Part shown: positions 36,302 to 63,400 of the stretch, piece by piece
Layout of the letters: the number at the start of each line of letters is the position of its first letter
Numbering within the stretch: the first letter of the stretch is position 1
From: Fimicolochytrium jonesii
Lineage: Eukaryota
Length of the DNA: 64,000 nucleotides
Direction of reading: 5' to 3'
Assembly (NCBI RefSeq): GCF_025526975.1
Contig: NW_026515692.1
Location: 372,001-436,000, forward strand
Position numbers and translations under genes: made by a program
Notes under the pieces: generated by a model
What the model was told of the DNA's origin: nothing
The model's input: the letters and a program-made list of their open reading frames with translations, nothing else
The model's database searches: none

Positions 36302-38581
36302 ATGGCACGACCACATCTGCGGCCTACAGCCGATGCTCCTACCGCCACCTCACAAGGGGTCCAACCCGCCACTACTGTGTCTGGACCGCTCGGGCAACAA
36401 CAACAACGGCAATGACAACAACAAAGACAACAACAGGCCCGGGTCGCGGTGCAAGGAGGAATTCAGGTGTCGACCTCTTCAGCATGGGGAGCTTTTCCGG
36501 CCGGCTCTTCCTCCTCGTCAAGGACCTCTTCTGCATGACAAGCTCTTGCGACCAGCTCTTTCTCCTCGTCGAGGACCTCTTCTGCGGGGGCAACCTATAC
36601 CTGGCAGGACCCAAATGCCGTGCTTTTTGAGCCAGTGAAAGTGGTGGTCCAAGGTCCTGCCGGTACCAAACCCTTACCACCACCACCACCCATCACCGAC
36701 ACGCCAACCCCCACATCGCAGCACCAACCGCTAAAACCCCCAACAACCACCACCACGACAACCGTCCTCCAAGCCGCCCCGCACACTCGACCCCGGCGTC
36801 ACGGTGGAACTACCAGTCCTGGCGGGGACAAACCCCCCACGACAACAACAACAACGGCTAAATCCCAACGCTCTTTGAAAGACAAGAAATCCCGGGACCC
36901 GCATATGGTTTTACAAGATAAACGGAGTGTGGCGAGAGGGGTTCGGATGTTGGATGCTTTAGGTAATGTACTATACATGCCTTGTGTCCCCTACATCCCC
37001 CCTTTCTAACCAATGTGGTTGTTTTTTTCTTTTTTGCGTAGTGAAAGACTCCAGAACGCTCCGAACAGCCCTGGACCTCTGCGTCCTCCGGCACTCACCT
37101 CCACCCACCCCAGACCTTCCCCCACCACCCCCCAACAACCGCGCCCAAAACCAGCACGCCCAAACCTCCCCGTTATGGTCCAAACCCTACCTCCACCTCA
37201 TCCTCTCCGAACTCCTTTCCCTCGTTTCCCCCTCACCCATAACAAAAGCAGAAGAAGACCAAGAAACGGTACTGGAATCACTCTACCGCCGGGTCCTCAA
37301 GGAAGTGGGTATCAAAGGGGCGTATCCTGGTGGTGCGGGTGGTGTAGGGACAGGGCGCGACCGCCGCTGGCGGCAGAGAGAGCAGAGAGAGCGGAGAGGA
37401 CAGCAGAGAGCAGAGAAGAGAGGAGCGGAGAGACGAGAGACGAGAGGAGAGACGAGAGGAGAGACGAGAGCGGAGCGCAGAGCAGAGACGAGCGGACCGC
37501 GGGCGCGGAGAGGGCGGCAGAGACGACTGTGGGGCCCTGGCCGGGTTCGTGCCGTGGCGGGGAGGGGGTCTGGCTGGCGCTCTCGAGAGGAGAGGACACA
37601 GAGTGGCTCTCTGCTCGCGACCTACTTCACTCAACGGGCGGCTCATGGCGGACAGGCAGCAAGCGGAAACGACCAGAGGGCAGCCGCCCGTCCGCATGGA
37701 GAGAGACCCTAGAGAGAGCATGCAGGGAGCAGAGAGCTCGCGGTCTCTGGTTTGACGAGAGCAAGCTGCCGCCCGCAGCAGAGAGAGCCATGCCGCTGCC
37801 TGTCACTGTCTCTGTCCTACCGAAGCTAGCACGTCCGCGGATCGACACGCGCGCGAGAGAGTGCGGCATCGCGGCTCTCCACCCACGCGCGGCAGCTTGG
37901 TTTGAGCAGAGAGTCGACTACTCTGTCGATTGGCAGTTTCCGCCGCGCACACCTGGCTGCTTCCATGTCAACCACCCACCAGTAGAGACAGCCACTGTGA
38001 TCGACCATGATGCTCTCATCTGGGGACGCGACGAGAGCATGAATTGGATCCTTGTCGCCGCCCACCTGCCGAATGCCTTTCTCGCGGAGCAGATGGGTCA
38101 TATGGAGAGGGCTTATAGGAGTTGGCAGACACAGACCAATCTGACTGTCGCGACTCAGAACCACAGTCCTGTTCGCTTTCGGCTTCGTCGCTGTGGAACC
38201 CATAGGCAGCCTGATGACCCAGAGAGCAAGGAGCAGCACTCGGGGATCTGGATTGCGAGAGGACAGTCGGAGCTGGCCCCTGTCGCGAATGTGACTGGGC
38301 AGAAGCTGCAGCATGGCATCGGGTCCTCGATCATCCGAGTCCATTCGGCTTTTCGAAAGCAGGGCATCCAGGAGCTCATCAGCCAAATGGTTTGGATGCT
38401 GGACCCCGACCAGTTTTTCGAGGCTCGCGATTTTTTCGAAGGCCTGCCTCGTCTGCTGCAGGGTTTTTTGCCCCAGGACGATGGCTGGACAACCCACACA
38501 CACACATGGTTGGGCACTGCCGACTGCCATTACGACACCGAGGGAAGTGCGGAGCCGGTGGGCATTGGCACTAGCTCTTAA
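36302..38581 (+). pseudogene. Low-complexity N-terminus plus 2OG-Fe(II) dioxygenase (TET/JBP-like) domain, truncated after HxD
   Basis: HSGIWIARG, WMLDPDQF and TADCHYD (HxD). In-frame TGA codons at 36413 and 36536; the ORF stops before any distal His/Arg ligands. Confidence 0.45.
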
Positions 38582-38734: not shown

Positions 38735-39935
38735 TTAAGCTAACACCATCTGGACCGAGCGATCCCACCGGGAGGCAAAGCCACGCATCTTGGTATCTGC
38801 AAACGTATCATACAACAGGTAGCAACCCAAAATAGGGAGGTATGCTGCGGCTTTTTTTCCAGGTGTAGACTTGCGCTTAAGCCCTTGCTCCGCCTTCGGG
38901 ATCATCTTCAGTAGCTCTACGTCTGGTTCCGGCGCCTGGTTCATCAGCGTGGCGATCCGACGGCCGTCGGGGAACACGACGGTTCGTAGGAACTCCAGCA
39001 TTCGCAGGCCGTTGTGGACGCTCTCCTCGAGACGACCACAATGCAGACGGAAACCGTACTGCCACTCAACATCCAAAAAAGGCCGGCGGGGTGGAGAACA
39101 GGCGTCAGGCTTCTGAACGCAACTGTGGAGTGCGATACACAGGCGATGCGTGATGGAGGGTTTCTTTGGTGACGAAACGCAAAATTTTCCTTGATTCCAG
39201 AACCGCCTCGGCCGAACCCACAAAGATGTCCTTGTGAACTGCGGTGAGGTCCCTCTCGAATTCCATGACCAGAACGCCGCAATAGCGGGCCACACCGTAC
39301 CGGGCCACCACGGCAACATCGGAAAATGCACTCGCCACGTCTCCGAAATGGTGGGCAAATTCTAGCCGCACCGCCAAGGACGGAGACATGAAGGTGACAG
39401 CGTCAGCCATCAACCTGCTTCCCAATAGCTTGACCTCCGCTTCAAAGGGCGAACGTAAAGTGCCGATGTTCGCGTTGACCGCCTTAGAGAAGAGAGACGA
39501 CCGAAATGGACGGGATCGCCCACTGGCAGAGGCGTGGTGCCGCCATTGCGTCATGCACGCTTACGGGCTGCAAGTCCTCTTTGCGAGCCCACAACGTCGT
39601 CACGATGATTCTGTTTAATTCAAAAACAGCCTCACCAGGGGCAACGATGCTGTCCTTACGTTCTGCGACAGCATCAGGCGGAAACTCGACGATCGTGCCG
39701 GTGTAGGTGCGCTCACGGCTGATGGTAACTCCCCCTCACACGGGATGGACCGTGGGAATTGGCGAGGGTTCTTGACAATAGCCGTAACGACGACGATGAG
39801 GACCCTTGCACTTGAACTTGACCGCCGCGATAGGTGGATCTTGGTGAGATGATTGGCTCACTATCGATAAGGTCTTGAAAGTCGTCTATGTGCCCGTAAG
39901 CGTTCTGCTAGGCTGACATCGTGGGAGGATGTCAT
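38735..39935 (-). pseudogene. Decayed hypothetical gene, paralog of the gene at 40703-41315
   Basis: Start MTSSHDVSLAER-(frameshift)-YGHIDDFQDLIDSEP aligns with MTYSHDSNVAERYGPVARFQDLIDSEP; DNA 39840-39960 is similar to 41219-41332. Confidence 0.55.
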
Positions 39936-40702: not shown

Positions 40703-41315
40703 TCAACGACAGGAGACTTGCCTGTTTTGCAGGGTGACGAGTCTGTCATCTAGGGTTCTAACGAACCCAACTTCGTCCAGAATCCACTGCAGATAATCGT
40801 TCAAGAAGTGCACAACGGCCGTCTCGTCTTTGTCTTGCTTTTCGCTCTCCTGCGACTCCCTGCTCGCTACGCTTCCCGCAGAGCTGAACTCCAATATCTG
40901 CGCAAAGGCCGTATAAATGATGGATACGGGAGTCGGGAACTGGCGTCGCTTAGCGCCCTCGCGTATCTCCGATCTGTCTAAAACGAAGAAATCCTCTGCA
41001 AAGGAAAGCTCTGAAGGATAATAGAGAAGAGAGATAAGCGGAGAGCTCATCTGCGGCTTCCAACGTACTGCCAATTTGTATTACCCGTCGTCGTAGGCGC
41101 GCACTCTTTAGGTACGACCTCAAAATGGTCATCGCACTGGATCACTTTGACTTTTAGTGCGACAGCGTAGCGGGCGTCCCACTTTGACGCTGACTGGAAG
41201 CCTGTCGTCTGGAAGATCTTGGTAAGTGAGACGGCTGGCTCACTATCAATAAGGTCTTGGAAACGGGCTACGGGCCCGTAGCGCTCTGCTACGTTGGAAT
41301 CGTGGGAGTATGTCA
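40703..41315 (-). pseudogene. Decayed hypothetical gene, paralog of 38735-39935
   Basis: Shared 5' sequence and TATA-like TATATAAAT upstream of both copies; the frame is split. Confidence 0.5.
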
Positions 41316-42023: not shown

Positions 42024-42037
42024 GATTATGAGCCCTG
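42024..42037 (+). promoter_or_regulatory. Primer-binding site complementary to the tRNA-iMet anticodon arm (half-tRNA priming)
   Basis: GATTATGAGCCCTG versus GGTTATGAGCCCTG used by copia/Ty5-type elements (one mismatch). Confidence 0.8.
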
Positions 42038-42112
42038 GCTTCGCCCGCAACTAGCAGACGGTCCAGGATAAAGAACTCACGGTCTCCAGTCACCGCTCTC
42101 TTAGAAAGCACC

Positions 42113-44067
42113 ATGCCACCTAAGGATTCAACAACCCAACCTCAGAAGGGCTACGCAGCTGCTGTGGCAGCCGGCAAGCCCTCCGCTCACAACACGCGGT
42201 CCCAAGGAGGAGCACTCCTGGGACCCCTACCTGCGGCCACTAGAGGAGGAGGAAAGAAAGTTCAACAACACGCTGTTAAGAGTTCTGAACCCTCGATTAA
42301 TCAGCGCTCTGGCATTGACTCACGTACTCCGCTTAATCAAGGCGTAGCCCGTCATGCCGACTTACGCAGTGAACCAACACCTACCCCGCCTTACAAAATG
42401 CCTGGTGAATTTGTGGATGAGAAGAAGAGGAAGGAGGAACTTTCTGCTACTATTCCAGAAGGGAAAGACGCAACCACGCCATATGTGGATGCGCCTGAAA
42501 CACGCGGACACACCGGAACCGAAAACAACCCCTTCCTGATGGATTCCATTCAGGAAGAACCTATGCCTGTCAAGCAGGAAGAGGAGGTGATTCAAATAAA
42601 GGATCAAATAGCCAGTCTGACTGGATTAGTTACCTCGCTCTTGAATTCGGACCGAGCGCCACAACAAGGCGGACCTACCGTCCCCTCCGTGAACCCGCTC
42701 ACTCAGTCGCCAGTGAACAGCACTCGCTCTCATTATTCGACTAGCCTTATCCAGGCAAACGCGCCATATATGACCTCGGTGTCACCGGCACCCCATGCGC
42801 CTCCTCAGTGCGCTATGGCCTACTCCGTCCCATACGCTTATAAAGCCCCGGAACGGCATCCTTACTTTCAAACCCGTTCTCAGAGCCCTCCTTTCGCTGA
42901 AATTCCTCACGAAAGTGCATCTGTGGGATCTGTTACTCCCGTAACACCCCCTACGGCCAGCAAATCAGCTTCCAAAGTCTTCATCAACACTACGATTAGT
43001 AAACTCGGCACCTACAACGGCGACCCCAAAGTTACCAAGCTTCAAGGGTTCATTGATCACATCGACGTGATTATGAAGTACCAGATGATTTCGCCTTCCG
43101 AATGCGTAGATTTCGTCGTCAACGCGCTCACTGGACCAGCTCTCCAGTGGTGGAAAAGCCTTCCTGAAAACGAGCGCTTCTCCATAATTTCATGGCATGA
43201 TATTGAAGACGTCTATGGACTGCCTCCTCAACTCGGATTACGCTCCGCGATGTTAAGGCGCTTGATTCCCCGGACTCATCTGCCGCAAGTTCTTCACAGA
43301 CTGCGCGCTCTGAAGCCCAAATCAATTAACCATCAAGGTTTAACCAAATTCGTTGCCCAGTTCAACCTTTTGGCTGGACAACTCCCCGGGCTCCCGGAAT
43401 ACGTGCTCTGTGCCGACTTCCTTCAAGCCCTTCCTAAGAATCTTAGTACCCTGATCACTGCTCAGGCTCAGTACGACGATCTACTTAGTCCTTCTCAAGA
43501 AGCCGCGATTTGTATAGCCGCCCAGCTCAACGAGAAGACCCTGAGTGCGCCTCAGTCGGGCGCATCCGCTGCCCACGTTACTTCCGCTCTACCTCAGAAG
43601 AAGAAGAACAAATGCAAGACTGGCGGCTCTAGAGGCTCCTGCTCTACGCAATCCTCGTCTTCTGACGCAATCAAGAAACCTCCCCAGTGCAAATACTGCC
43701 AAAGGGAAGGCCACAAGTCAGAAAACTGCTTTACTTACAAAGCTGTCAAGGATATTATGGACAAGAACGCGAAAACTAAGCAGGACGCACCCGCTGCAGC
43801 CTCCATGGCTTATGCCATACACGTCAAGTCCAACCAGCCAACCATGACGTCCGCATCTTCAAGGCGAACGTGGATTCCGGTTGTACGGATCATATGACCC
43901 CCTATATCGAGGAACTAGATCCATCTTCTCTTCAAGACTACCAACGCCTTATTGGACTCGCGGATTCGACTACCATTACCTCTCAAAAGAAGGGTACCGT
44001 ACTTACCCAACCTACGTCCGGCGGCAACGTTCTCGCTCTTTGCGACGTTCTATTGGTTCCCAGTCTT
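42113..44067 (+). pseudogene. gag: Copia gag-protease, frameshifted near 43870
   Basis: 594-aa ORF with LTGPALQWW and CKYCQREGHKSENC. The gag frame reads TWI and the protease frame reads VDSGC over the same GTGGATT, consistent with loss of one copy of a 7-bp repeat. Confidence 0.88.
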
Positions 44068-44087
44068 AGGGTTAGGGTTAGGGTTAG
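44066..44087 (+). repeat. Interstitial telomeric tract (TTAGGG)3TTAG at the copia / recombinase junction
   Basis: CCCAGTC-TTAGGGTTAGGGTTAGGGTTAG-TCCATG. Confidence 0.95.
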
Positions 44088-44312
44088 TCCATGCTTTTAT
44101 CGCCGCGCATTACTGATGGTCATAATCTGTCCCATTGTTTAGTTGCTGTTTCGCCTGCAGCCACGCCAACTACACCAATATCGTCTGGTGCGGATGTTCC
44201 GTATCCCTCGCCGCCATCAGGAAGTGCCGCCTTTACGCCAGCGTCACACCCTAGTGGTACTGTTGGAACCAATGCTCCGTTATTCGAGCCGCGAGCCACA
44301 CGCGACTGTGAG

Positions 44313-46384
44313 ATGTCGGAGCAATCAACCCGCGAAACGAGCTTTAACAGAAGCTTCAACACCGAGTTCAACACCGGCACAAGCGACGCAGCATTCAGCG
44401 ATGACGAAGACACAATTGAGTCGGATCTGCGACTTTCTAGAAGGGAAAAAATGACGGATGTAGACGACGCGGACCTTGCAAACGGAATAAAGTCGGTCAT
44501 CAAATTCAAGTGGTAAGTACACTTGTAGATACAATCTTGGTTTCTTCCTGCGCCCTTTTTTACAAGGCGACTCAACTAAGCGTTGTTCTTGATACACTGT
44601 AGTTACACACTCCAGGACTTTGAAATGACGACGTTGAACCACTCCGAGTTCCACCACTTGCGAGAGTTTTTCAGCACCCCACGACCGCGCGCCAAAGGAA
44701 TCAACCGAGTGCGCAATCCTCAGACAATCGCCAAGAGTCGTGAACGAATTTGCGGGTTTCTCGGCTGGCTGAAGCAATCGGGACGCGTAAAGCAACCATC
44801 GTTTAAAGACTTTCACGACTTGGACCTTTTCTTGGTGAGCGTCCCTCCCTTATTTGACAAGTGACATTTTTGGTAATATGTCCATAACATTTGTCGCTCA
44901 CCTGGTCGGTTAGGACAAGTATGTAGAAGGATATCTCGTAGGAATTCGCGGGCTGTCACACGGCTCCGTCGCAAACGCCATCACAGCTGCGATAGATGTG
45001 CACAAATTTCTAGAGTCGGAATCGTCTACAAGACTGCCGGGAACAAAAAAGTCGATGAGCATCACACGTCTTCAAAGCTACCGAAACAGAAAGCAGACTC
45101 TTGCAGAGCGAGAGCGTCAAGCCACTGTAGATGAGGATGGATCGACAATTTTATGGGAGCAAGTTTGTAATGTGCTTCGGCAGTACACGCAGCCAAAAGA
45201 ACATTAACATATTCCACTCCAGTTTCTAGAAGCGATTCGCTGCCAGAAAAAAGTGGTCGACAGCCTGCTAGTTGACGCACAGGACAGCCGGCTTCCGGCG
45301 CAAGTGCAAAAATACTTGGCGCTCGCTTTCTACGCGGCAATTCCACCCTCCAGAAGCAAAGAGATTCGACTTCTTTTGGACCGAATCCTTACCGAGTCAG
45401 AAAGTCGAACCTCGCTACAAAATCACATCACCCTTGTTCAGGGGCGCCATGTGATTGTTGTAAGGTATGTGGATATGGTGGCGAGCGGTCATTTTTCCGC
45501 GGAACACTACCTTATCGTCTTTTGTTTCCACCCTCTTTTTCTTCCAGCGACTACAAAAACAGTCTTTATAATGGGACAAGAGACGCCATCGAACTCCCTG
45601 ACGATTCAAGCATAATTTTAAAGTATCTTACATACTTTCTCCAGCCGATAGTTCGTGCGCAAGTTACGTCGGGGAAAAAACACGGCTATCTTTTCTGCAA
45701 AAACAACGGTGACGCATTCGACAGCGCGGGCGAATGGTCGGTGTATCTCGCCAGGATTGTCGAAAAGCACATCGGAATCGCCAACATTTCCAGTAACGCC
45801 TTGCGCCATTCTTTCACGACGTATATGGAGTCTGCAGTGGAAAGTGACCATGTTCGGCTACGCGAGAGCACCGCGTACGCAATGCGCCATAACATCAGGT
45901 ATAGTACCGCAATGGCTATCTGCGGAGTGTGAGGACAGTATCGGGACTGAATTCTTGACATCTGTAAAGGATCCAGCAACACACATACAACAACACCCCG
46001 TCTATAGAACGCAAAAGAAAAGCGGTCGACTTTGCTAGTCGCGTGTTCAAGCGCATAGTGCTGGAAGATTCGGCAACAGAAGCGGACTCCGACAACGGCG
46101 CACCACCCCTTGGAGCACTTGTAGGAACGAAACTGCTAAATGGACGACCTGGATTTGGAAAAGTAGTGCGTATCGAGAACGCCGACGCCATCATAATGCT
46201 ATTAACGCCGCGCCAGACCGAAGGGGCAACTTTGAGCGAATATGTCGCTGACATCGGAAGTCTATTACGACGCAACATAGCTAGGGAGATTCTTTATCCT
46301 ATTGATGGTGTTTATACTAGAGAGCAAGGGGTGTATGAGGTCTTTACGTCTTTAGAAGATGTGAAAAGGATGTTGGTACGGTAG
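44313..46384 (+). CDS. Tyrosine recombinase, OLV11/Polinton-like-virus type; exons 44313-44512, 44603-44834, 44914-45162, 45223-45464, 45548-45898, 45970-46384 (562 aa from this ATG)
   Basis: Five GT-AG introns keep a single open frame. Catalytic motifs PPSRSKE (R), SDYKN (K), NALRHSFTT, AYAMRHN and IQQHTYN (Y). The frame is open upstream to about 44143, so the gene may be 5'-truncated. Confidence 0.88.
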
Positions 46385-46437: not shown

Positions 46438-46850
46438 ATGAAAAAAGCGATTGTCCAATTTCAGCGATTGGAATTGTGTTAAGGAATGAAAGAGCGATTG
46501 CGACGCTCAAGGGGGATACGATTGAAAGGGGGGGGGGGGGGGGGTGAAAGAGCGATCGTCAGCTATGGGCTTTGTACTAAAGAATGAAAGAATGAATGAA
46601 AGAGCGATTGTCGCGTTAAGATCGACACGATGAAAGGGAAGAAAGAACGATTGTCGCGTTAAGGTCACACGCACGATGAAAGGGGATGAAAGAGTGATTG
46701 TTCCTTTCAAAGTCAACAGGATGAAAGGGGAAGAAAGAGTGATTGTTCCATTCAAAGTCAACACGATGAAAGGGGAAGAAAGAGCGATTGTTCCATTCAA
46801 AGTCAACACGATGAAAGGGGAAGAAAGAGCGATTGTCCCTTTGATGTCAG
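46438..46850 (+). repeat. Array of about ten AAAGAGCGATTG-like motifs, including five tandem units of about 45 bp
   Basis: ACACGATGAAAGGGGAAGAAAGAGCGATTGTTCCATTCAAAGTCA repeated over 46626-46850; dispersed cores near 46442, 46489, 46547 and 46599; G-run 46527-46544. Confidence 0.92.
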
Positions 46851-47651
46851 CTTTTTTCTTGACCCTAGATAGAAAAGATAGATGTCCTTTTTTATCTTTG
46901 GTTATGGATTTAAATCTGTTGATTTTGCAAATTTGTATTTCTAAGTTTCTATAAGTTCTACATGACGGCGTGACTAGAAAACGGATTTTGCTATAAGGCA
47001 TCCAGGTCTGTAGGGTCAAAACAGTTGAGTTTCTTCCGCTCCCTGCCGCCTCTCTGATCAGATGGTTTCATTTTAAATCCTTTGTGAACAAGGGCAACTG
47101 AGCTTCGTCCAATATCCCCATTTAATTCTGAATCAGGTTGAAGAGGGCACTCAATGGCTTGCTGATTGTCGAAAAGGAGAAATTGTTTTCGATGGCGAGC
47201 GTATATACGAGTAATTGGAAGCCGTCTCGGTGACTAACCTGGGGGAGCCCAGTTTAAGGTTTTTCTCAAGGAGTTTAATACTTTCGTTGAACCACGCGCC
47301 CTGGCTCAGGCGAGTGATTTGGACGGTTATCTTTGCAGACATGTTTTGCATAATTGTTAATATGTAAAGGTTTACTAAATGTAAATAGCATCATATCTTT
47401 AAATACTGTTTTTGCAACACGCGGAGCGTCACTTGTTTGAGCGTTTAACTTAAAGAGAAACTAACCGACATCTACCGTCTGCATAGCGCACTTGCCCCTC
47501 CCCCCCCCCCCCCCTCTCATGGAGCGGTATTTTGGAGCACCGCGCTTTTCCAGACTCTTGCAGGCTTTGGATGAGAAAGGAGAAATTGGCGTTCAATAGT
47601 TCATATACTGCTTAGTCAGCACGAGCACCTTGGTGTTTTGGACAGGATGTT

Positions 47652-49838: not shown

Positions 49839-50714
49839 ATGTCAGACCCCTCTATAGAAAACGCGATGGAAAACGCAGTCATCACAATCGAGCAGCGCAT
49901 CGACAAAGACCTGATGAGCTGTGTCATCTGTTTGGATGAGCTCGACTTTCCCATTATTCAATGCTCAAATGGACCGCATTTTATATGTGCGGCGTGCGTT
50001 CCAAGAATCGACAAATGCCCAGTTTGTATGAGCGGAGGCTTCCTACACAATCGTCACCTCGAAAACCAGCTGATGCCCTTTGCAACATCTTGCACGGTCC
50101 CAGGCTGCGATCGCAAGTGCCTTCCTTGGGCAATAAAAAGTCATGAGCGCCGATGCGCTCATAGCTTATTTCCCTGCTTTATCTGCGGGAAACAGGTCTC
50201 TCTCCATGGTCTCGCAAAGCATTACAGCAGCGAATGCTCATGTGTGTATCAGGTGCACGACCGTTCAGGGCATCAAAGAGAAAGCCTTTTAACAATAGGC
50301 AGCTTGCATCCCGTCTTGCCTTTAAGAGACGAAAACAGCATATGCCTCTACTCTCAGGGCGTTAACCTTTTATGCAAGCCGATAGGTGGGAACTTAAGCG
50401 AGCACCCTTATTGGGGCGTCGTTGCTGTACAAAAGCCGCGCAACACGCCGACAGCAGAACCTCCTTTTGTAACGCTTCGCGTCCACGACAAGACTGGGCA
50501 ATCTTTGTCGTTTTTGTCGGTAACAATCAGAGCATTTAACGAGCTGAAACACGTTACGGCAGCGCATGCAGCCCTTATCCCCGCCATCAGCAATGACACG
50601 GAGCTCCATTGTAGCGTTCAAAGCAATAACATCTGGTTTTCCCCGCTATCAGGCATCCACTACGACGATGCGACAGATAATGACGATGACCTCGACAACG
50701 ACGATGCGACATGA
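49839..50714 (+). CDS. SINA/SIAH-like RING E3 ubiquitin ligase
   Basis: CVICLDELDFPIIQCSNGPHFICAAC..CPVC (RING) followed by NRHLE and SIAH-type zinc fingers (C..PGC..HERRC..PC..H). Confidence 0.82.
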   Translation: MSDPSIENAMENAVITIEQRIDKDLMSCVICLDELDFPIIQCSNGPHFICAACVPRIDKCPVCMSGGFLHNRHLENQLMPFATSCTVPGCDRKCLPWAIKSHERRCAHSLFPCFICGKQVSLHGLAKHYSSECSCVYQVHDRSGHQRESLLTIGSLHPVLPLRDENSICLYSQGVNLLCKPIGGNLSEHPYWGVVAVQKPRNTPTAEPPFVTLRVHDKTGQSLSFLSVTIRAFNELKHVTAAHAALIPAISNDTELHCSVQSNNIWFSPLSGIHYDDATDNDDDLDNDDAT

Positions 50715-50734: not shown

Positions 50735-51412
50735 TCATCCGGGTCTCAGATTACCATAATCGACCCAGAATGCTATCACCTCCAAAAGCTCGTTCTTGCT
50801 CCCTTTAAACCACTCGCAATGTCCTTTGGTGGTTTTACAGCAGCACTCGATATGACCAAGCCATTTGTTTTTTGTCTTTAGTTCATTGTGTATCAAGTGC
50901 TCGCACAAGCGATGGCGGCTTACCTTCCAATACCCTTCTAAAGTAATAGGTTGTTTGCATTGCCTCTCCCACTGTTTTCCGCGCTTTACCGGTCCCACCT
51001 TTGTGTTTGTACAACCGATTTTATACTGTTCCAGTTCTACGGATTGATTTCCACTTTTCCGAAACATATATATATACCCCGGTTCGTCGTTGCCTTTTTC
51101 CTTGTCGGACAGCAGTACGCTAAGAACGCGAAGACAACTGTGTCCCTTTAGCCGATCGGCAATCAAATTTAAATCATGATCTGGTGAGCAACGTTTTGAT
51201 GTGCGGACAGGGACAGGTGGCGGCTCAATACAAATAGGACCCAAAGGTTGCGGTAAATGGGTCTGCGATTCTAACGCTTGAGATTGCGATTGCAACCACT
51301 TGTTGCGCAATACTACTACAACCTTCTGGGGCAGAACGGACTTGATAAATAGGAAAAGTAAAGCACATATTGCTAGTAATTTAACGTGTCGCCAAAACTC
51401 GCATCTACGCAT
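50735..51412 (-). CDS. T5orf172/MUG113 (GIY-YIG superfamily) protein with N-terminal hydrophobic anchor
   Basis: PGYIYMF, YKIGCT, KRGKQWERQC, EHLIHNEL and HCEWF. Confidence 0.85.
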   Translation of the reverse strand: MRRCEFWRHVKLLAICALLFLFIKSVLPQKVVVVLRNKWLQSQSQALESQTHLPQPLGPICIEPPPVPVRTSKRCSPDHDLNLIADRLKGHSCLRVLSVLLSDKEKGNDEPGYIYMFRKSGNQSVELEQYKIGCTNTKVGPVKRGKQWERQCKQPITLEGYWKVSRHRLCEHLIHNELKTKNKWLGHIECCCKTTKGHCEWFKGSKNELLEVIAFWVDYGNLRPG

Positions 51413-51511
51413 CTTACTGTTTCACCACAAATTACTGTAGCGACAGTGCGCCCGCATGTAGCGTGTTGTGTACTTTTACGACGTGCGAATAATTAGAGCT
51501 CTGAGGTATAC

Positions 51512-51921
51512 TGCGAATAAATGGGCAACTCTTAATTTCGGCTTTATGCAAATTTGAATGATTAAATAATAAAAAGAAACAGATACTGAAAATAAATAGG
51601 CAACGTCTATGTCAGCTTTAGGCAGAATTGAATAATAAATAATAAAATAAATTAGATAATGCGAATAAATGGGCAACTCTTAATTTCGGTTTTTACGCAA
51701 AACTGAAAGATTGAATAATTAAATAATAAAAAGAAACAGATACTGAAAATAAATAGGCAACGTCTATGTCAGCTTTAGGCAAAATTGAATAATAATGCGA
51801 ATAAATGGACAACTCTTAATTTCGGTTTTTACGCACAACTGAAAGATCGAATAATAAAAAATCGAAATGATGCATATAGGTAGGGAACGTCTAATGTCAG
51901 CTTTAGGCAAAATTGGATAAA
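51512..51921. repeat. Three AT-rich tandem units of about 125-150 bp
   Basis: TGCGAATAAATGG(G/A)CAACTCTTAATTTCGG starts at 51512, 51660 and 51796; each unit contains AACGTCTA(A)TGTCAGCTTTAGGCA. Confidence 0.95.
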
Positions 51922-52674: not shown

Positions 52675-53301
52675 ATGAACGGCTCCGTAGACCCTTTCAA
52701 AGAAGTCGCAAAGTTTACAGACTATGCCGACTTCAAGCAGTGGTGCTCCCACAACAAACTCCCCCGTGGATACGCAAAGGCAGTTTGGGATTTCCACGAG
52801 AAGGAAGCCCGCGATATGGAATATAAACGCGAACGGCGCCACAACATTTTCGAGGACGGCGACCCTATCGCTGGAACCATCACGTCCCCTGCACTGCTCG
52901 ACCTTCGCTTCGACGCACCCATCCGCAAGACCCTTGTTCTTGTCGGTCCAGCCGGTTCCGGGAAGGTTCGATGGGTTCTCGAAAACAGCCCCAAGCCGAT
53001 CTACATCATTCGTTCCCCAAGCGACCTCCGCGGCTTCAGCAAGTTCCTGCAGCGATTTCCCGGTTACATCAAGTCGATGCTCTTTATCCAGATGGATTTC
53101 AAGAAATATCCTTATAACGAGCAGAGAAACGTGGTGGAAAGCCAAGTCCCCACTGCCCGTATTCCTTACCACGGACATGGGGTAAAAATCCCAGTCAATA
53201 TTCAGAGGACATTTGTCTGGAGCGGCGACGGATTCCCGTTTGGAGAAGAAGCGGGGGTCAGGCGTAGGATGCATATAGTTAATACAAATCTTGCTGAGTA
53301 A
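52675..53301 (+). CDS. CRESS-DNA-virus Rep-derived SF3 helicase domain (no HUH domain, degenerate Walker B)
   Basis: KTLVLVGPAGSGK, PKPIYII..SDLRGF, KSMLFIQMDF (usually IIFDDM), VKIP..RTF and PF...VRRR. Confidence 0.75.
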   Translation: MNGSVDPFKEVAKFTDYADFKQWCSHNKLPRGYAKAVWDFHEKEARDMEYKRERRHNIFEDGDPIAGTITSPALLDLRFDAPIRKTLVLVGPAGSGKVRWVLENSPKPIYIIRSPSDLRGFSKFLQRFPGYIKSMLFIQMDFKKYPYNEQRNVVESQVPTARIPYHGHGVKIPVNIQRTFVWSGDGFPFGEEAGVRRRMHIVNTNLAE

Positions 53302-55639: not shown

Positions 55640-55930
55640 ATTGGGTTAGGACCCTATTGGGTTAGGACCTAACCCTAGGAACTCAAGTGAGGAAATAAAT
55701 AGCAGAATTAAATGAAGAATTGATGAATAAAATAACAACAAATAGGAATACCGTTCATCCAAAAAGGCTGATAATTCACGAAATTACATTAATTCCACGA
55801 AAAGGGTATTTTACTTTGCAACAAACAAAAAAACAAAACCGGCAAGCAGTGAGGGTTAAAGATCGGGTTAGGGTTAGCGAGCGCCAAGACCTTGTTCGGC
55901 GGTCTTCATTGGGGTTAGGGTTAGGGTTCT
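55640..55930. repeat. Cluster of telomere-like GGGTTAG motifs in an AT-rich spacer
   Basis: TTGGGTTAGGACC twice and CCTAACCCTAGG (55641-55680), GGGTTAGGGTTAG (55865) and GGGGTTAGGGTTAGGGTT (55911). Confidence 0.75.
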
Positions 55931-56622: not shown

Positions 56623-56738
56623 AAACGCACATCTGGTGCCTCGCGGTATAGCCCTAAACCAACATGCGTTTAAAAAGACGTTTTTCTTTTAATGATATAC
56701 TAATAAATCAACAACAACTAACGAAAAGCGGCAAAATG
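56623..56738 (+). promoter_or_regulatory. Duplicated upstream element, copy 1 (copy 2 at 57473-57583)
   Basis: AAACGCAC..GTGCCTCGCGGTATA..TAAACCAACATGCGTTTAAAAA..CAACAACAAC..CAAAATG precedes two different ORFs. Confidence 0.8.
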
Positions 56739-57472: not shown

Positions 57473-57583
57473 AAACGCACACATCATGTGCCTCGCGGTA
57501 TATAGTTAAACCAACATGCGTTTAAAAAAGCGCTTTTATTAAGTGATAGACAAATATACCAACAACAACACGTACCCAAAATG
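57473..57583 (+). promoter_or_regulatory. Duplicated upstream element, copy 2
   Basis: See 56623-56738. Confidence 0.8.
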
Positions 57584-57767: not shown

Positions 57768-60146
57768 ATGCGTATAAACAAGTTGCTGAAATCACCCTTG
57801 CTGAACGCAAAAGAGCGCAGTTCACTATTGGCTTACCAAAATCAGCGTAAAAAACATGACGCTTTCGAAGGAAATTACATTTACAAGCAGCCGCAAGGCT
57901 ACGGACGTCTTTATGTCGACGGCATTGGGCACCAGAACCTGTCAAAAAATATCAGAACTTACATCACAAACGGTTACTACACGGACATCGATGTTGTGAA
58001 CTGTCAACCGACGCTGACTAGATTTCTTTTCCAGCTTTTCCATCTCCAATGTCCGCCGGATCTGGAGCGTTACTTGACAGATAAGGGCGCCGTTCTAGCA
58101 GAAAATGGGATAACGGACAAGAAAGTGGTGAACAAGTATTTAAACAAAAGCAAAAACGACGCACCGCACGCGTTTCTTAGAAATATCCACAAGGAGATTT
58201 ACGAGAAGCTTGTGCCGCGCCTTCAGGAGTCGCCGGAGTTTAAGCCGCTGTGGCAGTGGGTCGAAGCTTCCGACAAGAAATACAACAAACGCGGCTCTTT
58301 TTTCTCGTACGTTGTGGCGAGTATCGAGAATCTTGTGCTTTCAGCAATGCACTGCTTTTTTACGAGAGGGGGTTTTTCGCCAGACAGCCTGATATTCGAC
58401 GGGATGCTCGTAAAAGCCGACCCTCGAATAAACGACGACCTGCTGAGGGAATGCGAGCGTTTCATCGAAAAGCAAGTGGGTGCACAGGTGCAACTCGCGG
58501 TCAAGCCAATGGAATGTACTGTGGATTTTGACAAGGAAATCACAGTTGACACAAGCAACATTGTAATAGAGGGTAATAAAGAGCTGTCAAAGTTGATAGA
58601 GGAATCTCGGAGCGGCACTAGTGGACGGCTTGCTATACTCGCCATGTATTTGATGAAAGAGCGATACATTTGCATTCGGCGCAGGCAGTGGTTTAAATTC
58701 GAACAGCACAAGTGGACCGAGCTGGCAGGGTGCCCAAGCATGGACGCAATGGACTTGTTACTTTGTCCCATTAAAGAGTGGTACGACGCACTGCTTGTGG
58801 AATTGGATCGCATGCAGTGCGAAAGCGAGGATGAAGCCGAAAGACGGTACTTAAAAACTCAGGTTGAAAGAGTGGAAAGGGAGAAAAGGATGCGCGTCGA
58901 AGCGATTGAAGACTCGGGGATAAGGGTGAAAATCATGAAAGACTTAGAGGATCTAATGGACTCTTATACAAAAGACGTCGTTTTTGACACAAAACCGTAT
59001 CTATTGTGCTTTAAGAACGGGGTGTACGATCTTTTACTAGACGAATTGCGGGATGGGTTGCCGGAAGATTATCTCACCATCGGCGTGCCGTACGCTCTTC
59101 CTGACTCTATGTGTCCTGACATCGACGCAAAGCTCGACGCTTTGCTAGAAAGCATCTTCCCTGATAAGGAAGTTCTTCTATACGTGATGCTGACGCTTTG
59201 CACATGTCTAGAAGGAATCAATCGGCACGAGCAATACTGGACGTGGCTGGGCGTTGGTCGTAACGGCAAGGGTATTCTCAAAGATCTAACGCAGCACACG
59301 CTTGGAGAAGAGCTGTGCAAGTTTCCAAAGCCAACAATTCTAACTACAAAACGGTGCGGGTCGAGCCAAGCGAACCCCGAGTTTGTCGACCTAAAAGGCG
59401 CACGAGCGGTATTCGTTTCTGAGCCGTGTGTCGGGGAGAAAATCAAAAGCGCAACCTTGCGTGAGCTTACCGGCAATGATAAATCCCGGCAACGAGGGTT
59501 GTACGGTGCGCAGGAGACCGTGAGCCCTGATTACAGCTTATTTCTCTTGTGCAACGGACGTCCAGAGATGGACGCCCCTGACACCGACGCGATTTGGGAT
59601 AGGGAAAATAGCGTCCATTTTCCACACAAGTTTGTGGAAGATCCAAAACTGCCTCACGAGCGCCTGACTGACAAGGGATTGAAGCAAAAGCTCACAGAAT
59701 ACGCGCCGTATTTCATGCTCAAACTTTTGCAATGCTACAAGCAGTACAGGGAAAATGGATTCAAGTTGGATGCGCCACAAGGTGTTTTAGCGGTGAGCCG
59801 AGAATACCGGTTGGAAAACAACCCTGTCGAAAAGTTCTACCAGGAGCAAGTGGTAAAGGCGTCTGAGACAACTGCAAACGAAGGTTTTGAAGAGCTGGAG
59901 TCAAACAGCATGCTGCTGCCGGTCTCTCGACTCTGGTCTTTGTTTGAAAGGTGGAGAAAGGACAACACTGTGGCGGCAAGTATATCGGAAAATGGGTTCT
60001 ATCAGAAGCTAGCGAAATTAGCCAAGTGTGATGGTTTAAAACCCGTGAAAAGAAAAGTGGATGGTGCAAGGGTTATGTGCTACGAGTGTATGGTTATTAG
60101 GGAGTATGAGTGGAGCGGCGTGGACAGCTGCTGGCGTTTAAATTAG
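57768..60146 (+). CDS. TVpol (PolA-like primase-polymerase) fused to a D5-like SF3 helicase
   Basis: YGRLY..Q..IR, YTDIDVVNCQP (motif A) and LIFDGMLV (motif C); D5-N LLCFKNGVYDL..PEDYLT; Walker A GVGRNGKG, Walker B AVFVSE, motif C LLCN and AIWDR. The 5' end may involve ORF 57581. Confidence 0.9.
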   Translation: MRINKLLKSPLLNAKERSSLLAYQNQRKKHDAFEGNYIYKQPQGYGRLYVDGIGHQNLSKNIRTYITNGYYTDIDVVNCQPTLTRFLFQLFHLQCPPDLERYLTDKGAVLAENGITDKKVVNKYLNKSKNDAPHAFLRNIHKEIYEKLVPRLQESPEFKPLWQWVEASDKKYNKRGSFFSYVVASIENLVLSAMHCFFTRGGFSPDSLIFDGMLVKADPRINDDLLRECERFIEKQVGAQVQLAVKPMECTVDFDKEITVDTSNIVIEGNKELSKLIEESRSGTSGRLAILAMYLMKERYICIRRRQWFKFEQHKWTELAGCPSMDAMDLLLCPIKEWYDALLVELDRMQCESEDEAERRYLKTQVERVEREKRMRVEAIEDSGIRVKIMKDLEDLMDSYTKDVVFDTKPYLLCFKNGVYDLLLDELRDGLPEDYLTIGVPYALPDSMCPDIDAKLDALLESIFPDKEVLLYVMLTLCTCLEGINRHEQYWTWLGVGRNGKGILKDLTQHTLGEELCKFPKPTILTTKRCGSSQANPEFVDLKGARAVFVSEPCVGEKIKSATLRELTGNDKSRQRGLYGAQETVSPDYSLFLLCNGRPEMDAPDTDAIWDRENSVHFPHKFVEDPKLPHERLTDKGLKQKLTEYAPYFMLKLLQCYKQYRENGFKLDAPQGVLAVSREYRLENNPVEKFYQEQVVKASETTANEGFEELESNSMLLPVSRLWSLFERWRKDNTVAASISENGFYQKLAKLAKCDGLKPVKRKVDGARVMCYECMVIREYEWSGVDSCWRLN

Positions 60147-60426: not shown

Positions 60427-63400
60427 TTATTCCTGTTCTCTCGACGCAATCTCCTTCCAGTGGGGATCACGGCTCATAAAGTCGTCGAGTTGTTTCGCGC
60501 TAAGCCTTTGATGCGTTTCGATTATGTTTGCCTGCATCGTCGTACAGTCTGTGCAAAACTCGCTCGGCTCTACTGTCTGCCTGTCGCATCGTTGTTTAGG
60601 CTTATTTAATTGGTGGCATTTGCCGCAGCTTGTGCCATCCGCAATCAGTGGCTGACCACAGACATTTTTTTGCTCCCTTACAAATTCTGGAGTAAGGAGG
60701 GAAGGAAGGAAATGAGTCAACGCAATCACGACCTGTGGGCTAAAATACACGTAAAAGCTTACTTGGCTTTACACTACATGTTTCCGGCTCGACATGAGCG
60801 GCTGCTGCACAATCATTGTCTTGGGCACTTGAACGACTCGCTCCAGCTCCAGTATCCTGATCTAACTGTTCCTCGTCATACTGCCGAGAGGCGAACACTT
60901 CTTCCGCGATACGGCTGTGTTTCTTACGGAGCTCATTAGGAGGCACGGAGGTCCAGTCCGAAGTGTCTCCAAGAATAAATTGGGTTGCCCACTCAAGAGC
61001 ATAGGGTCCACAACTGTTAGCGTCCGTTTGTTTCGGGATGAGCTTAGACGCTGTGACAGTGTCGATTGGGGGACACGGTATTGCAGTCACGGTGTCTTGA
61101 GTGACCACACGTTTGACCACCTTTTCCACCTCGTCGATGTGGGCTCCTTGATGGAAGGAGTCCGCAAATTCCCATCTCCACTCCTGAGCAGACATTTTGC
61201 TTGCGGTATAGACGACCCAGTGGTTTTTACCGCGGTTGAAGGGAGCCACGATTCTTTTGGTTTCGTCGTCAATGATACGGAAGCCTCCATCAAGGCTATC
61301 GACAACTGACAAATCCTCGTGGTTCGCTTTGGCGTGGTTCAAAAGATAGTAGAAGCAGGTGTCGTTGTACCACTCGGCTCGAAGGCGTTGTACCATGTCT
61401 TCATAAGATGTCTTGCTGATGCGATCAATGGACGCTGTACGTTGTGGTTTCCCCATTTTCGATAAAGATCGTTTTGGTGTGGAAGCCGAGGCGAAAAGCC
61501 TTTTTCCTTTAAGCGCCGGAGTCCTAGGGGTTGGGTACGGGTTGAGCTTACGGTCCCGAGTTGGAGGTGTCCCAGTGAACGGGGTCGACGCCACGGGCGA
61601 TCGGGCGACTTGTTCATCGACAGGCGAAGCAATAACTTCCTCCGCAAATGTCGGGAGGGTCACACTGTTCCATTTCGTCCATTCTGCCGGCGATACGCTT
61701 TTGCTGCGTCGGATTCTCCGCAGGACTGCGTTCCAGGTACGTGCAGTGATTTGCAAAACGCCTTTCTTTGACAAGAATTCTAACCCATCAGATTCAAAGT
61801 TGAAAAGCAAGATTCCCTTTCCGATTGCGTCGACCAAATCCCTGAATCGCTTCCCTGCATTCACTTGTCGGCGAAAGACCTTGGTGTTTTTGGGGATGAT
61901 GCCTTCCCTCGTCATCCAGGTAAGAACTGCGTTCGTGAATTTGCCGTCATCTTTGATTATCGTGTAAGGTCCGGACGTTCTGCGAATCAGTACCTCGCGC
62001 ATCCCGTAGTCTACGCATCTGTCGTACGCGTTTGCAAGAGCAACTGCACAGACATATGACTGAAAAATGGCAATATCTCTGTGCAAAAGTTACAATGAGT
62101 GACTTTTCTTTGTCAATGTGGTATTATCGAAGCAATTTACCTGTTTCCGGTGCATTTCTCCATTCTGTGCCATGCGACGGTCAGAGCTTTGTCGGCAGTT
62201 TCTTCGGGAGCACTCAGATCGATTTCCATAAGATCAGTATGTTCCAGACCTTTACTGGTTAAAAAATATGTCGGATGTAAGCTCTGTGTTCCCCTGAATT
62301 TACCGGTAGTAATGCCTGTGTAGAAGCCACCCATTACCTAACCAGCGTGACACACTCTTCTAACTCGGCAGCTGTTATCTCTTCCAATTTCTCCAACAAC
62401 CTCGTGATGAATGTGTCTTTACTCGAAAATGTTTCGTCATCTGATGAAGGGGGTGTCCCACGGGGTGTCCCATTGCGCGAACGGGTCCCCGTTTTCGAGG
62501 GTTTTGTGACGTGGTTTATGCTTTGCTTGCGCTTTTTTTTGCGCTTCTTTGCTGGACGGTGTGCCTTGTTGTCATCATGTTTTGGTATCTTTCTCTTGTC
62601 ACCAGTTGTTTCGGTGTCGTCCGTTTCTTCGCCCGATTCCTCGTCTTCGTCCGAGTTCCTCTCCGTTTCCGTGGCGTCCTTCCCTTCCCCACATTCCTCG
62701 TCTTTGTCTGAGTTCCTCTCCGAGGCGTCTTCGGTGTCCAAGTTCACGTTTGGTGCAAGAGGTGCTGCACCCTCTTCCGACTTGTCCCTAGTTTTTTCTT
62801 CTGGGTCCGAGCTGATTGTTGCTACGCGCTCGTACACTTGAACTCTCCGTTCGTCGGCGTGATCCTCTGTCGTATACTTTGCAAGACTCGTTTTATCAAC
62901 AGATGACCTAGTAAAAGGTGTGGACTTTAGACGTTTTTAAGCTTATGGCTCCAGAAAGCGACAGACTTTACCGCACGCTTCTTTCCATCACTAAGCGGGT
63001 TACACCTTTCTGTGCCAGGATCGCCACGAATAGTCCTATGACAGACGTCAAGGGTTCTTCAAACGTCACGTCTTGCAGTGGAAAGTAATGGACAACAGTG
63101 CCAGTTGTAAGCGATTCCAGGGTTCCGTTTATTTTTGTATAGACTGGCGGCGCTGTGCCTTGTATCCATCCGCGCATGGTCTCGTGTATTGTCCTCATAA
63201 CCTCGTTCCTGTCGTCTTCAAGATTAGGTATATCATCGAGAGAATAAAGGTCGGAAACTGTTTTTCGGATGAGGTGGTGGGCATCATCTTTTCCAGAGTT
63301 GCCGATAAATCGCAAGAGGTCCTCAAATGACTTCAGGAGACTGAGCACAGGTTCTCCGGCGCTGCCCATACGCGCCCGCTCGTAGCCTGTCAAGAACTTG

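Follow-up and report, generated by a model that had tools for sequence, protein, structure and literature searches.

Virophages as well as Polinton-like viruses (PLVs) are described as carrying a gene pair made up of an OLV11-like tyrosine recombinase (YR) and TVpol-S3H (Yutin et al., 2015, PMC4642659), and YR integration has been described for phaeoviruses (PMC13236599). Among eukaryotic transposons, CryptonV (Kapitonov and Jurka, 2012, as cited in PMC8869645) is reported to insert in microsatellites and was described from cnidarians; Repbase lists it as a group (PMC5753468). PLV-like elements have been reported in chytrids (PMC7805220; 10.64898/2026.06.19.733378), and a paper on Mycodnaviridae mentions polinton-like integrases, its main text containing neither 'tyrosine' nor 'virophage' and reporting only a lone major capsid protein (MCP) contig in Fimicolochytrium jonesii (PMC13533422). 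Here we analysed 64,000 nucleotides of this chytrid (contig NW_026515692.1, positions 372,001 to 436,000; hereafter the window), in which a gene at 44143..46384 on the plus strand encodes a YR. With moderate confidence, we read this gene as the 5'-truncated integrase of a multi-copy chytrid element that is derived from the virophage/PLV gene pool, adapted to the nucleus, and moves by means of a circle.

Our literature search found no description of this chytrid YR family, with most subscription papers and Repbase Reports lying outside the search; it may already be present among Repbase entries or in the supplementary material of the papers on PLVs and Mycodnaviridae. The original prediction, made from the DNA sequence alone, had implied that introns are unusual in a YR. 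They are less so than it suggested, since multi-exon viral YRs (PMC10871703) and intron-containing, even intron-rich, Crypton YRs (PMC13465315; PMC3212892) have been published.

A spliced tyrosine recombinase and its chytrid family

The gene is organized as follows.

44143..44512, plus strand: exon 1, acidic and proline-rich linker, with the internal Met (44313) used by the 562-aa model
44513..44602, plus strand: intron 1, 90 nt, phase 2
44603..44834, plus strand: exon 2, first half of the core-binding domain
44835..44913, plus strand: intron 2, 79 nt, phase 0
44914..45162, plus strand: exon 3, second half of the core-binding domain
45163..45222, plus strand: intron 3, 60 nt, phase 0
45223..45464, plus strand: exon 4, catalytic R271
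45465..45547, plus strand: intron 4, 83 nt, phase 2, missing from the metagenome homolog L002, in which exons 4 and 5 are contiguous
45548..45898, plus strand: exon 5, K311, N391-x-x-R394 and H422 (phrog_1 integrase, E 3.4e-4)
45899..45969, plus strand: intron 5, 71 nt, phase 2
45970..46384, plus strand: exon 6, nucleophile Y431 and a Tudor/chromo-barrel-like domain (aa 466-560, ~46091-46375)

All five introns are GT-AG, 60-90 nt long, and have a GC content of 41-47% compared to 49% in the exons. Reading through them introduces in-frame stops in four cases and a frameshift in the remaining one (45465-45547). Close homologs that span the junctions are contiguous over introns 1 to 5 in 15/15, 19/21, 19/21, 24/25 and 19/20 cases, respectively, and those with extra length there look as though the same intron was kept in the gene model. 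These observations bear out the five originally proposed introns, whose splicing rests on homology. Since gene models from Fimicolochytrium, Geranomyces and Borealophlyctis carry insertions at the positions of introns 2-5, intron positions are apparently common to two chytrid orders. Joined from the ATG at 44313 to 46384, the exons give the predicted 562-aa product without a stop, identical to the F. jonesii database protein P0002, which is annotated as hypothetical or uncharacterized. The gene had also been called invisible in six frames and intact. Pfam matched none of the six single exon pieces, in line with the former description, which nevertheless goes too far, as exons 4-6 fall within stretches of 128-138 aa that are free of stops. 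As to the latter, the reading frame is open, yet the gene is truncated at its 5' end and its exon 0 is missing.

The spliced product contains the PPSR, YKN, NALRH, MRH and QQHTY motifs and the beta-rich tail that had been noticed at the outset. In a 123-row family alignment, the catalytic columns are almost invariant (R271, 108/108; K311, 117/117; R394, 111/113; H422, 106/109; Y431, 104/106), and the His position of HxxR is occupied by N in 75 rows and T in 22. The PHROG integrase family phrog_1 matches the YR (E 3.4e-4), and a profile of the 123 sequences matches XerD (E 1.3e-4) among PDB sequences, where an 8-sequence profile had given chance matches only. A profile search of 1.84 billion representatives returned 304 proteins at E<=1e-3. 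The structure model built from the 123-sequence alignment (pLDDT 86.9) supersedes an earlier one (33 sequences, pLDDT 63) that did not resolve the catalytic domain and had no Foldseek match in the PDB. Over residues 72-456, the deeper model aligns with XerH (Z 15.9, rmsd 6.2, 308 aligned), IntI4 (Z 14.7), XerA (Z 14.7) and Cre (Z 14.5); scores are lower for Ndc10 (Z 7.5) and Flp (Z 7.1). Together, alignment and model identify the protein as a tyrosine recombinase, as first proposed, with predicted recombinase activity.

Searches for known eukaryotic YR groups gave a consistent picture. Pfam returned no match for P0002, and PF00589 matched weakly in 5/33 family members. DUF3504, DUF3435, NDC10_II and GCR1_C were found in 0/33 close proteins (E<=1) and 0/50 further proteins (E<=0.01), so that the family bears none of the Pfam signatures that mark CryptonA/I/F and Starship, as anticipated. 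No reverse transcriptase or RNase H, by which DIRS, Ngaro or VIPER elements would be recognized, was detected among 105 window open reading frame (ORF) pieces; the gag-protease ORFs beside the YR belong to a separate long terminal repeat (LTR) element. Rfam gave no match to the sequence, and tblastn against phage records gave none. The dN/dS comparison that had been suggested was run against L002 and gave a dN of 0.21 with saturated dS over 193 codons. No CpG depletion or signal resembling repeat-induced point mutation was seen along the window.

The Tudor/SH3-like C-terminal segment suspected earlier is also recovered. In the predicted model, residues 466-560 form an SH3-like barrel of the Tudor/chromo type that matches MRG15, TDRD3, Tbtudor and PHF19 with middling scores (Z 7.0-7.5, rmsd 1.5-4.2, 53-70 residues), which KOW and other SH3 barrels approach (Z 6.6-6.7). 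The barrel is present in many distant relatives in the 123-row alignment. Its only conserved aromatics are at positions 487, 534, 540 and 547, and the first strands hold just one of them (F/W487), which falls short of the aromatic cage that we take to be typical of methyl-lysine readers. We regard the chromatin reading first suggested for the barrel as a putative role; the domain probably serves to hold the enzyme on DNA or nucleosomes, though not necessarily via a methyl mark. On the other side, a canonical chromodomain replaces it in 2/50 scanned relatives (P0095 and P0142, E 3-5e-10), which suggests that C-terminal targeting modules are exchanged among family members. The N-terminal domain lost from the window copy (see below) resembles ORF6N/Bro-N/KilA-N folds (TM 0.50-0.64, below the bar for naming or without a family), and in distant relatives it shows a likeness to the Ski/Sno DHD that lies below the cut-off; we treat both as leads only. 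The full enzyme would comprise a winged-helix-like DNA-binding domain, a linker, the core-binding and catalytic domains, and the Tudor-like barrel. Distant relatives of 660-830 aa have the same three-part architecture.

Thirty of 35 close homologs could be assigned to an organism, and all 30 are chytrid, with several per species: Fimicolochytrium 6, Geranomyces 10, Borealophlyctis 5, Powellomyces 4, Thoreauomyces 4 and Rhizophlyctis 1. The six F. jonesii copies are spread over five contigs, and many family copies are fragmentary and dispersed. Chytrid YRs formed one clade (FastTree 0.997) in a tree of 79 of the 123 rows, from which 44 rows were left out for low coverage; there the window copy clusters with Rhizophlyctidales, apart from two other F. 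jonesii copies. Because several copies exist in each of two chytrid orders and their introns lie at the same positions, we consider the YR an old, nucleus-adapted mobile element and not a domesticated gene. Copies are also rearranged: P0001, a sister copy, has a duplicated C-terminal half and is without exon 3, and L002 (1-1200) is permuted, with a C-terminal exon ahead of an intron-less exon 4-5 piece. Judging by these sequences, YR loci seem liable to partial duplication in tandem.

Farther afield, 10 further relatives that we looked up lie on 0.7-9-kb contigs, and the YR recovered one 1.7-kb locus in a metagenome scan. The nearest Atlas cluster is eukaryotic and commonest in Cnidaria (0.95; 184/256 features; phylum known for 4 members only). 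One branch of the family (P0190, P0157), together with the Atlas rank 2 cluster, which is commonest in Cyanobacteriota, may be bacterial. Separately, seven contigs with YR or helicase homologs (those of P0053, P0015, P0008, P0029, P0038, P0039 and P0040) measure 19.6-26.1 kb, the size of a virophage genome; they may be whole elements or merely short assemblies.

Loss of exon 0 at a telomeric repeat

The 5' end of the gene abuts a telomeric repeat, and neither this junction nor the virophage-type helicase described further on figured in the original prediction. The features concerned are:

42032..44073, plus strand: broken LTR retrotransposon, gag ORF with a zinc knuckle followed by a frameshifted protease, ending at the junction
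44066..44087, plus strand: perfect telomeric repeat, (TTAGGG)3.7, at the junction, sharing its first bases with the L-R-V codons of the retrotransposon
44088..44142, plus strand: 55 nt left from the 3' end of a sixth intron ('intron 0'), with TTTAG as its last bases and an ATG in frame at 44091; P0001 homology sets in at its acceptor
55643..55924, strand unassigned: second cluster, with 7 of the 17 telomere-like GGGTTAG motifs in the window, non-coding, ahead of the helicase

The window YR differs from P0001 at 3 of 332 compared residues. P0001 carries 183 residues ahead of the Met used by P0002, so that Met 44313 corresponds to its residue 184, and 44145-44312 encodes its residues 128-183 exactly. 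Homology to P0001 begins at the acceptor 44142/44143. The first ~127 residues of the extension, including a predicted DNA-binding domain, are missing from the window copy. This N-terminal domain (within residues 1-~127 of P0001) is common to P0005, P0019 and P0053, and in part to P0020 and P0025; a hidden Markov model (HMM) built from it found no match in the window (best E 2). The window YR gene is a six-intron gene that has lost exon 0 at the telomeric repeat. The 55-nt stub and the 22-nt repeat together measure 77 nt, inside the 60-90-nt range of the other YR introns. P0001 is seven accession numbers away from P0002, and its gene does not lie within the window. The contigs recorded for P0001 and P0002 are equal in length, as is that of the window helicase P0036 (459,799 bp). 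Proteins consisting of the N-terminal domain only were considered as a sign of gene splitting and rejected, since gene callers stop at the intron.

On the other side of the junction, the retrotransposon matches Ty3_capsid and Retrotrans_gag in Pfam, and Pol_BBD over residues 31-98 of ORF 43780 (translation DVLLVPSLRVRVRV). We take its protease motif to be copia-type. The sequence breaks off inside the protease, where the codons CTT AGG GTT provide 2-9 nt of TTAGGG-matching bases, and the retrotransposon is the host-side flank, outside the YR element. The sequence AGGGTTAG occurs nine times in the window (1.17 expected), three of them at the junction repeat, and motifs of the GGGTTAG type occur 17 times (5.18 expected). 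Among the 25 longest inverted repeats listed, none pairs with the junction as a terminal inverted repeat, except another telomere-like motif. The second cluster (55643-55924) additionally contains a 16-bp tandem and two (TTAGGG)2-like runs. Its motifs could be binding sites for telomere proteins or the relic of an internal target.

A virophage-type primase-helicase and the surrounding region

To the right of the YR lie RING, T5orf172, P-loop-like, primase-helicase and Ulp1 ORFs and several repeat arrays, whereas host-type genes (Na/Ca exchanger, AAA ATPase, SNF2-HIRAN, hydrolase, ankyrin) occupy the region left of ~35 kb. GC content per kb is 37-51% in 44-64 kb versus 47-62% in most of 1-39 kb. 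The principal features are:

57768..60146, plus strand: intronless 792-aa primase-helicase (P0036), a D5-like superfamily 3 (SF3) helicase with an N-terminal domain common with virophage proteins (PF08706; PHROG primase, E 4e-54)
46481..46849, plus strand: 45-bp tandem repeats containing a GAAAGAGCGATTG-like motif eight times, a short way downstream of the YR
49839..50714, plus strand: RING-finger (Sina-type) ORF, probable cargo (PF21362, E 6.5e-8)
50735..51412, minus strand: T5orf172/MUG113 (GIY-YIG-like) ORF, probable cargo (PF10544, E 7.5e-15)
51508..51920, strand unassigned: AT-rich 136-157-bp repeats, candidate replication origin
60740..62089, minus strand: Ulp1/C48 protease ORF, probable cargo (PF02902, E 2.6e-5)

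By comparison with the published description (PMC4642659), the primase-helicase would be called TVpol-like. Its alignment matched 52 viral loci, nearly all via residues 2-280; a scan of viral contigs with the single helicase protein gave no match. The Sputnik-type major capsid protein was found by Pfam in 4/8 helicase loci examined and by HMM in 16/52. Fourteen of the 52 loci, all retrieved through the helicase only, encode a YR of ~300-330 aa that the chytrid family HMM recognizes at E 1e-35 to 7e-12, compared to 5e-3 for a canonical phage integrase. In the reverse test, an HMM of 11 virophage-locus YRs gave E values of 8.9e-13 for P0002 and 0.34 for the phage integrase. The top viral fold matches are giant-virus YRs, which rank above phage integrases: Pyramimonas virus (E 7.5e-10), followed by those of Harvfovirus, Hokovirus, Heterosigma virus and Aureococcus virus. 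The reciprocal HMMs and the giant-virus folds both support the viral-type affinity first proposed. Close relatives of the helicase occur in F. jonesii, Rhizophlyctis and Borealophlyctis, the genera of the subclade to which the window YR belongs.

Several smaller features accompany these genes. The 46481..46849 repeats are candidate protein-binding or origin repeats, and a G-run (46523-46554) and a C-run (47487-47519) with their flanks form an inverted pair ~930 nt apart around them. An ORF of 208 aa (52675-53301, plus strand) contains a P-loop (GPAGSGK). Neither Pfam nor PHROG matches it, and it may resemble degenerate helicase domains of CRESS-virus Rep proteins. A 61-nt motif occurs at 56628-56688 and 57480-57540 (84% identical), upstream of a 100-aa ORF and of the helicase region, and is a candidate common promoter of the element. 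In the repeat-rich zone left of the retrotransposon there are two diverged copies (80%) of a minus-strand, coding-like sequence (39844-39898 and 41226-41280), and a 523-aa stop-free frame (37010-38581, plus strand) runs across AG-rich repeats without a Pfam match.

Origin of the element and comparison with known systems

YRs act as tetramers through a phosphotyrosine and a Holliday junction. In the reading favored here, the window YR would do so via Y431, and the element would be excised as a circle and then recombined into a new site. The element probably spans at least 17.6 kb to the right of the YR, including the primase-helicase, T5orf172, RING and Ulp1 ORFs, and this segment would enable the circle to replicate after excision. 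As its target sequence we consider TTAGGG repeats the likeliest, on the model of the telomere-targeting YRs of nimaviruses and of microsatellite-targeting CryptonV. The window copy is probably not the autonomous one, because it lacks the first exon and the native promoter. We are doubtful of the most far-reaching form of this proposal, namely a capsid-less, virophage-derived replicon of at least 20 kb in chytrids whose intron-bearing integrase targets TTAGGG and has its attachment site in its own first intron.

Several results weigh against the favored reading. In a hand-picked tree of 73 rows that is rooted on one distant phage integrase and has weak deep nodes, the 11 YRs from virophage contigs fall into a separate clade (FastTree 0.966); it is sister to the group that holds the chytrid YRs, which are not nested within it. 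The helicase search returned no protein from Geranomyces, Powellomyces or Thoreauomyces, genera rich in YR copies. YR and helicase homologs lie on contigs of differing lengths in other assemblies, so that their linkage is seen in the window only, and TTAGGG targeting rests on one junction. Within the 64 kb, neither the right end of the element nor a target-site duplication or empty site can be seen. Capsid, packaging ATPase and maturation protease were not found in the window with virophage-locus HMMs (best E 0.4), some members of which were assigned by position and size and which would miss divergent PLV capsids; the element may extend past the window end. Finally, three viral-contig scans with distant three-domain relatives gave nothing, so that a transposon fits better than a virus; a scan with the window YR itself found one ordinary phage integrase.

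The readings compared here overlap, and our confidence in them is not meant to sum to one. A substantial possibility, though one short of even, is that the junction is a repaired break: telomerase would have added TTAGGG to a double-strand break in the retrotransposon, and this end would have been joined to a piece of the YR element, making the repeat uninformative about the recombinase target. Short interstitial telomeric insertions are known from vertebrates. The repeat has the orientation in which telomerase would add it to the left piece, starting on its matching bases, both junction partners are truncated, and YR loci are often rearranged (P0001, L002). This account, however, requires a second break to hit an ~80-nt intron of a 2.7-kb gene by chance, and YR elements that target telomeric or simple repeats have been reported (PMC10871703; PMC8869645). 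A special version of the favored reading, which we consider unlikely, would instead make the TTAGGG run the crossover core of a split ('suicidal') integrase, situated inside intron 0. Exons 1-6 would lie at the left end of the element and exon 0 with the promoter at the right, the gene would be whole only on the excised circle or at a tandem seam, and splicing would remove the scar. The break indeed lies inside an intron with all later exons whole, and stub plus repeat are already intron-sized; 2-9 nt resembling TTAGGG are contributed by the retrotransposon where the two sequences meet; and archaeal SSV-type integrases offer a precedent (PMC7253208). Complete P0001, six intervening accession numbers away, resembles a tandem seam, but its position and orientation are deduced from accession order only. 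Similarly, a near-identical Powellomyces pair (P0020/P0026) shares one contig, one with and one without the N-terminal piece, but missing N-termini in other gene models are possibly prediction failures at intron 0, and N-terminal-only proteins end about where that intron lies. P0019, on a 700-kb contig, keeps exon 0 joined upstream (a one-member cluster with no annotated twin), and since distant relatives have the look of one long ORF each, such a device could not be common to the whole family.

Two further explanations concern the element as a whole. That the YR constitutes a Crypton-like DNA transposon by itself, perhaps the fungal arm of CryptonV, lying by chance beside an unrelated virus-derived helicase segment, seems to us somewhat unlikely. 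It would fit the distant 660-830-aa relatives with three-part architecture on small contigs (2-9 kb), the nearest Atlas cluster being commonest in Cnidaria, the source group of CryptonV, and the absence of YR-helicase linkage outside the window. Opposed to it are the findings that YR and helicase each point to the virophage gene pool and occur together in 14/52 viral loci, that the cluster seems to be enclosed by two YR copies that are nearly identical, and that 44-64 kb is lower in GC than most of 1-39 kb. The original prediction had offered a recently active or host-retained integrase. Recent activity is plausible for the element given the 3/332 differences between two copies, but a domesticated host gene, with YR fold and Tudor barrel serving a chromatin function, is highly improbable: an open frame, host-like introns, purifying selection and the in-frame ATG at 44091, which could begin a 637-aa product, are outweighed by a family that is dispersed, multi-copy and represented by many fragments, by retained catalytic residues, and by a tree that departs from host taxonomy, placing the window copy beside Rhizophlyctidales instead of beside other F. 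jonesii copies.

On the favored reading, the chytrid YR family would connect the integrases of virophages and giant viruses with nuclear mobile elements that contain introns, DNA-binding and Tudor/chromo modules having been added at the termini, and would offer a candidate route for the integration of viral DNA in zoosporic fungi. If TTAGGG targeting is true, the enzyme would be a natural site-specific integrase for a repeat common to fungi and vertebrates. If the site does lie in the intron, integration would split and silence the gene, excision or tandem insertion would restore it, and splicing would clear the scar: a new kind of self-regulating switch and a spliceosomal counterpart of the suicidal integrases of archaea.

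Compared to the OLV11-like YRs of virophages and PLVs (PMC4642659), the window YR shows reciprocal HMM similarity, pairing with a TVpol-like SF3 primase-helicase, and shared motifs (PPxRxxE/D, YK(T/N), LRH, MxH and a late Y), OLV11 itself being outside the compared sequences. Those YRs are intronless, 300-330 aa long, and encoded in genomes with capsid genes, whereas the complete chytrid protein would have ~745 aa, six introns, additional N- and C-terminal domains, and no capsid gene was seen in the window. Giant-virus (Nucleocytoviricota) YRs give the best viral fold matches and share the model of circle excision and integration; XerH is the closest solved structure reported for the phaeovirus integrase as well (PMC13236599). 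They differ in their low identity (13-16%) and in a CC core in place of a telomeric repeat at the junction. The giant-virus hallmarks MCP, PolB, A32 and VLTF3 were not found among the scanned window ORFs, in a region that continues beyond 64000.

CryptonV, compared by description only, is likewise a eukaryotic YR DNA element, reported to insert in microsatellites; for the window element, insertion into a simple repeat may be reflected in the (TTAGGG)3.7 at the single junction seen. Its description, as far as the accessible sources go, mentions no fungal member, introns or helicase cargo; the chytrid family may nonetheless be CryptonV. Endogenous nimavirus YRs (Kawato et al., PMC10871703) belong to DNA elements at telomeric repeats, and related nimavirus YRs are multi-exon, which makes them a functional analogue of the window YR. 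They are described as distinct from the YRs of nucleocytoplasmic large DNA viruses and Cryptons, with a C2H2 zinc domain, arthropod TAACC repeats as sites, and large viruses as carriers. CryptonA/F/I/S and Starship captains are also eukaryotic, often contain introns, and have a proposed circular intermediate, but the family Pfam domains of CryptonA/I, CryptonF and Starship are missing from the window YR, which is structurally closer to XerH (Z 15.9) than to Ndc10 (Z 7.5). Finally, the SSV-type archaeal integrases are alike, as a model only, in having a gene split by its own integration; their site is reported to lie within the ORF (PMC7253208), whereas in the window YR the putative site would lie in a spliceosomal intron.

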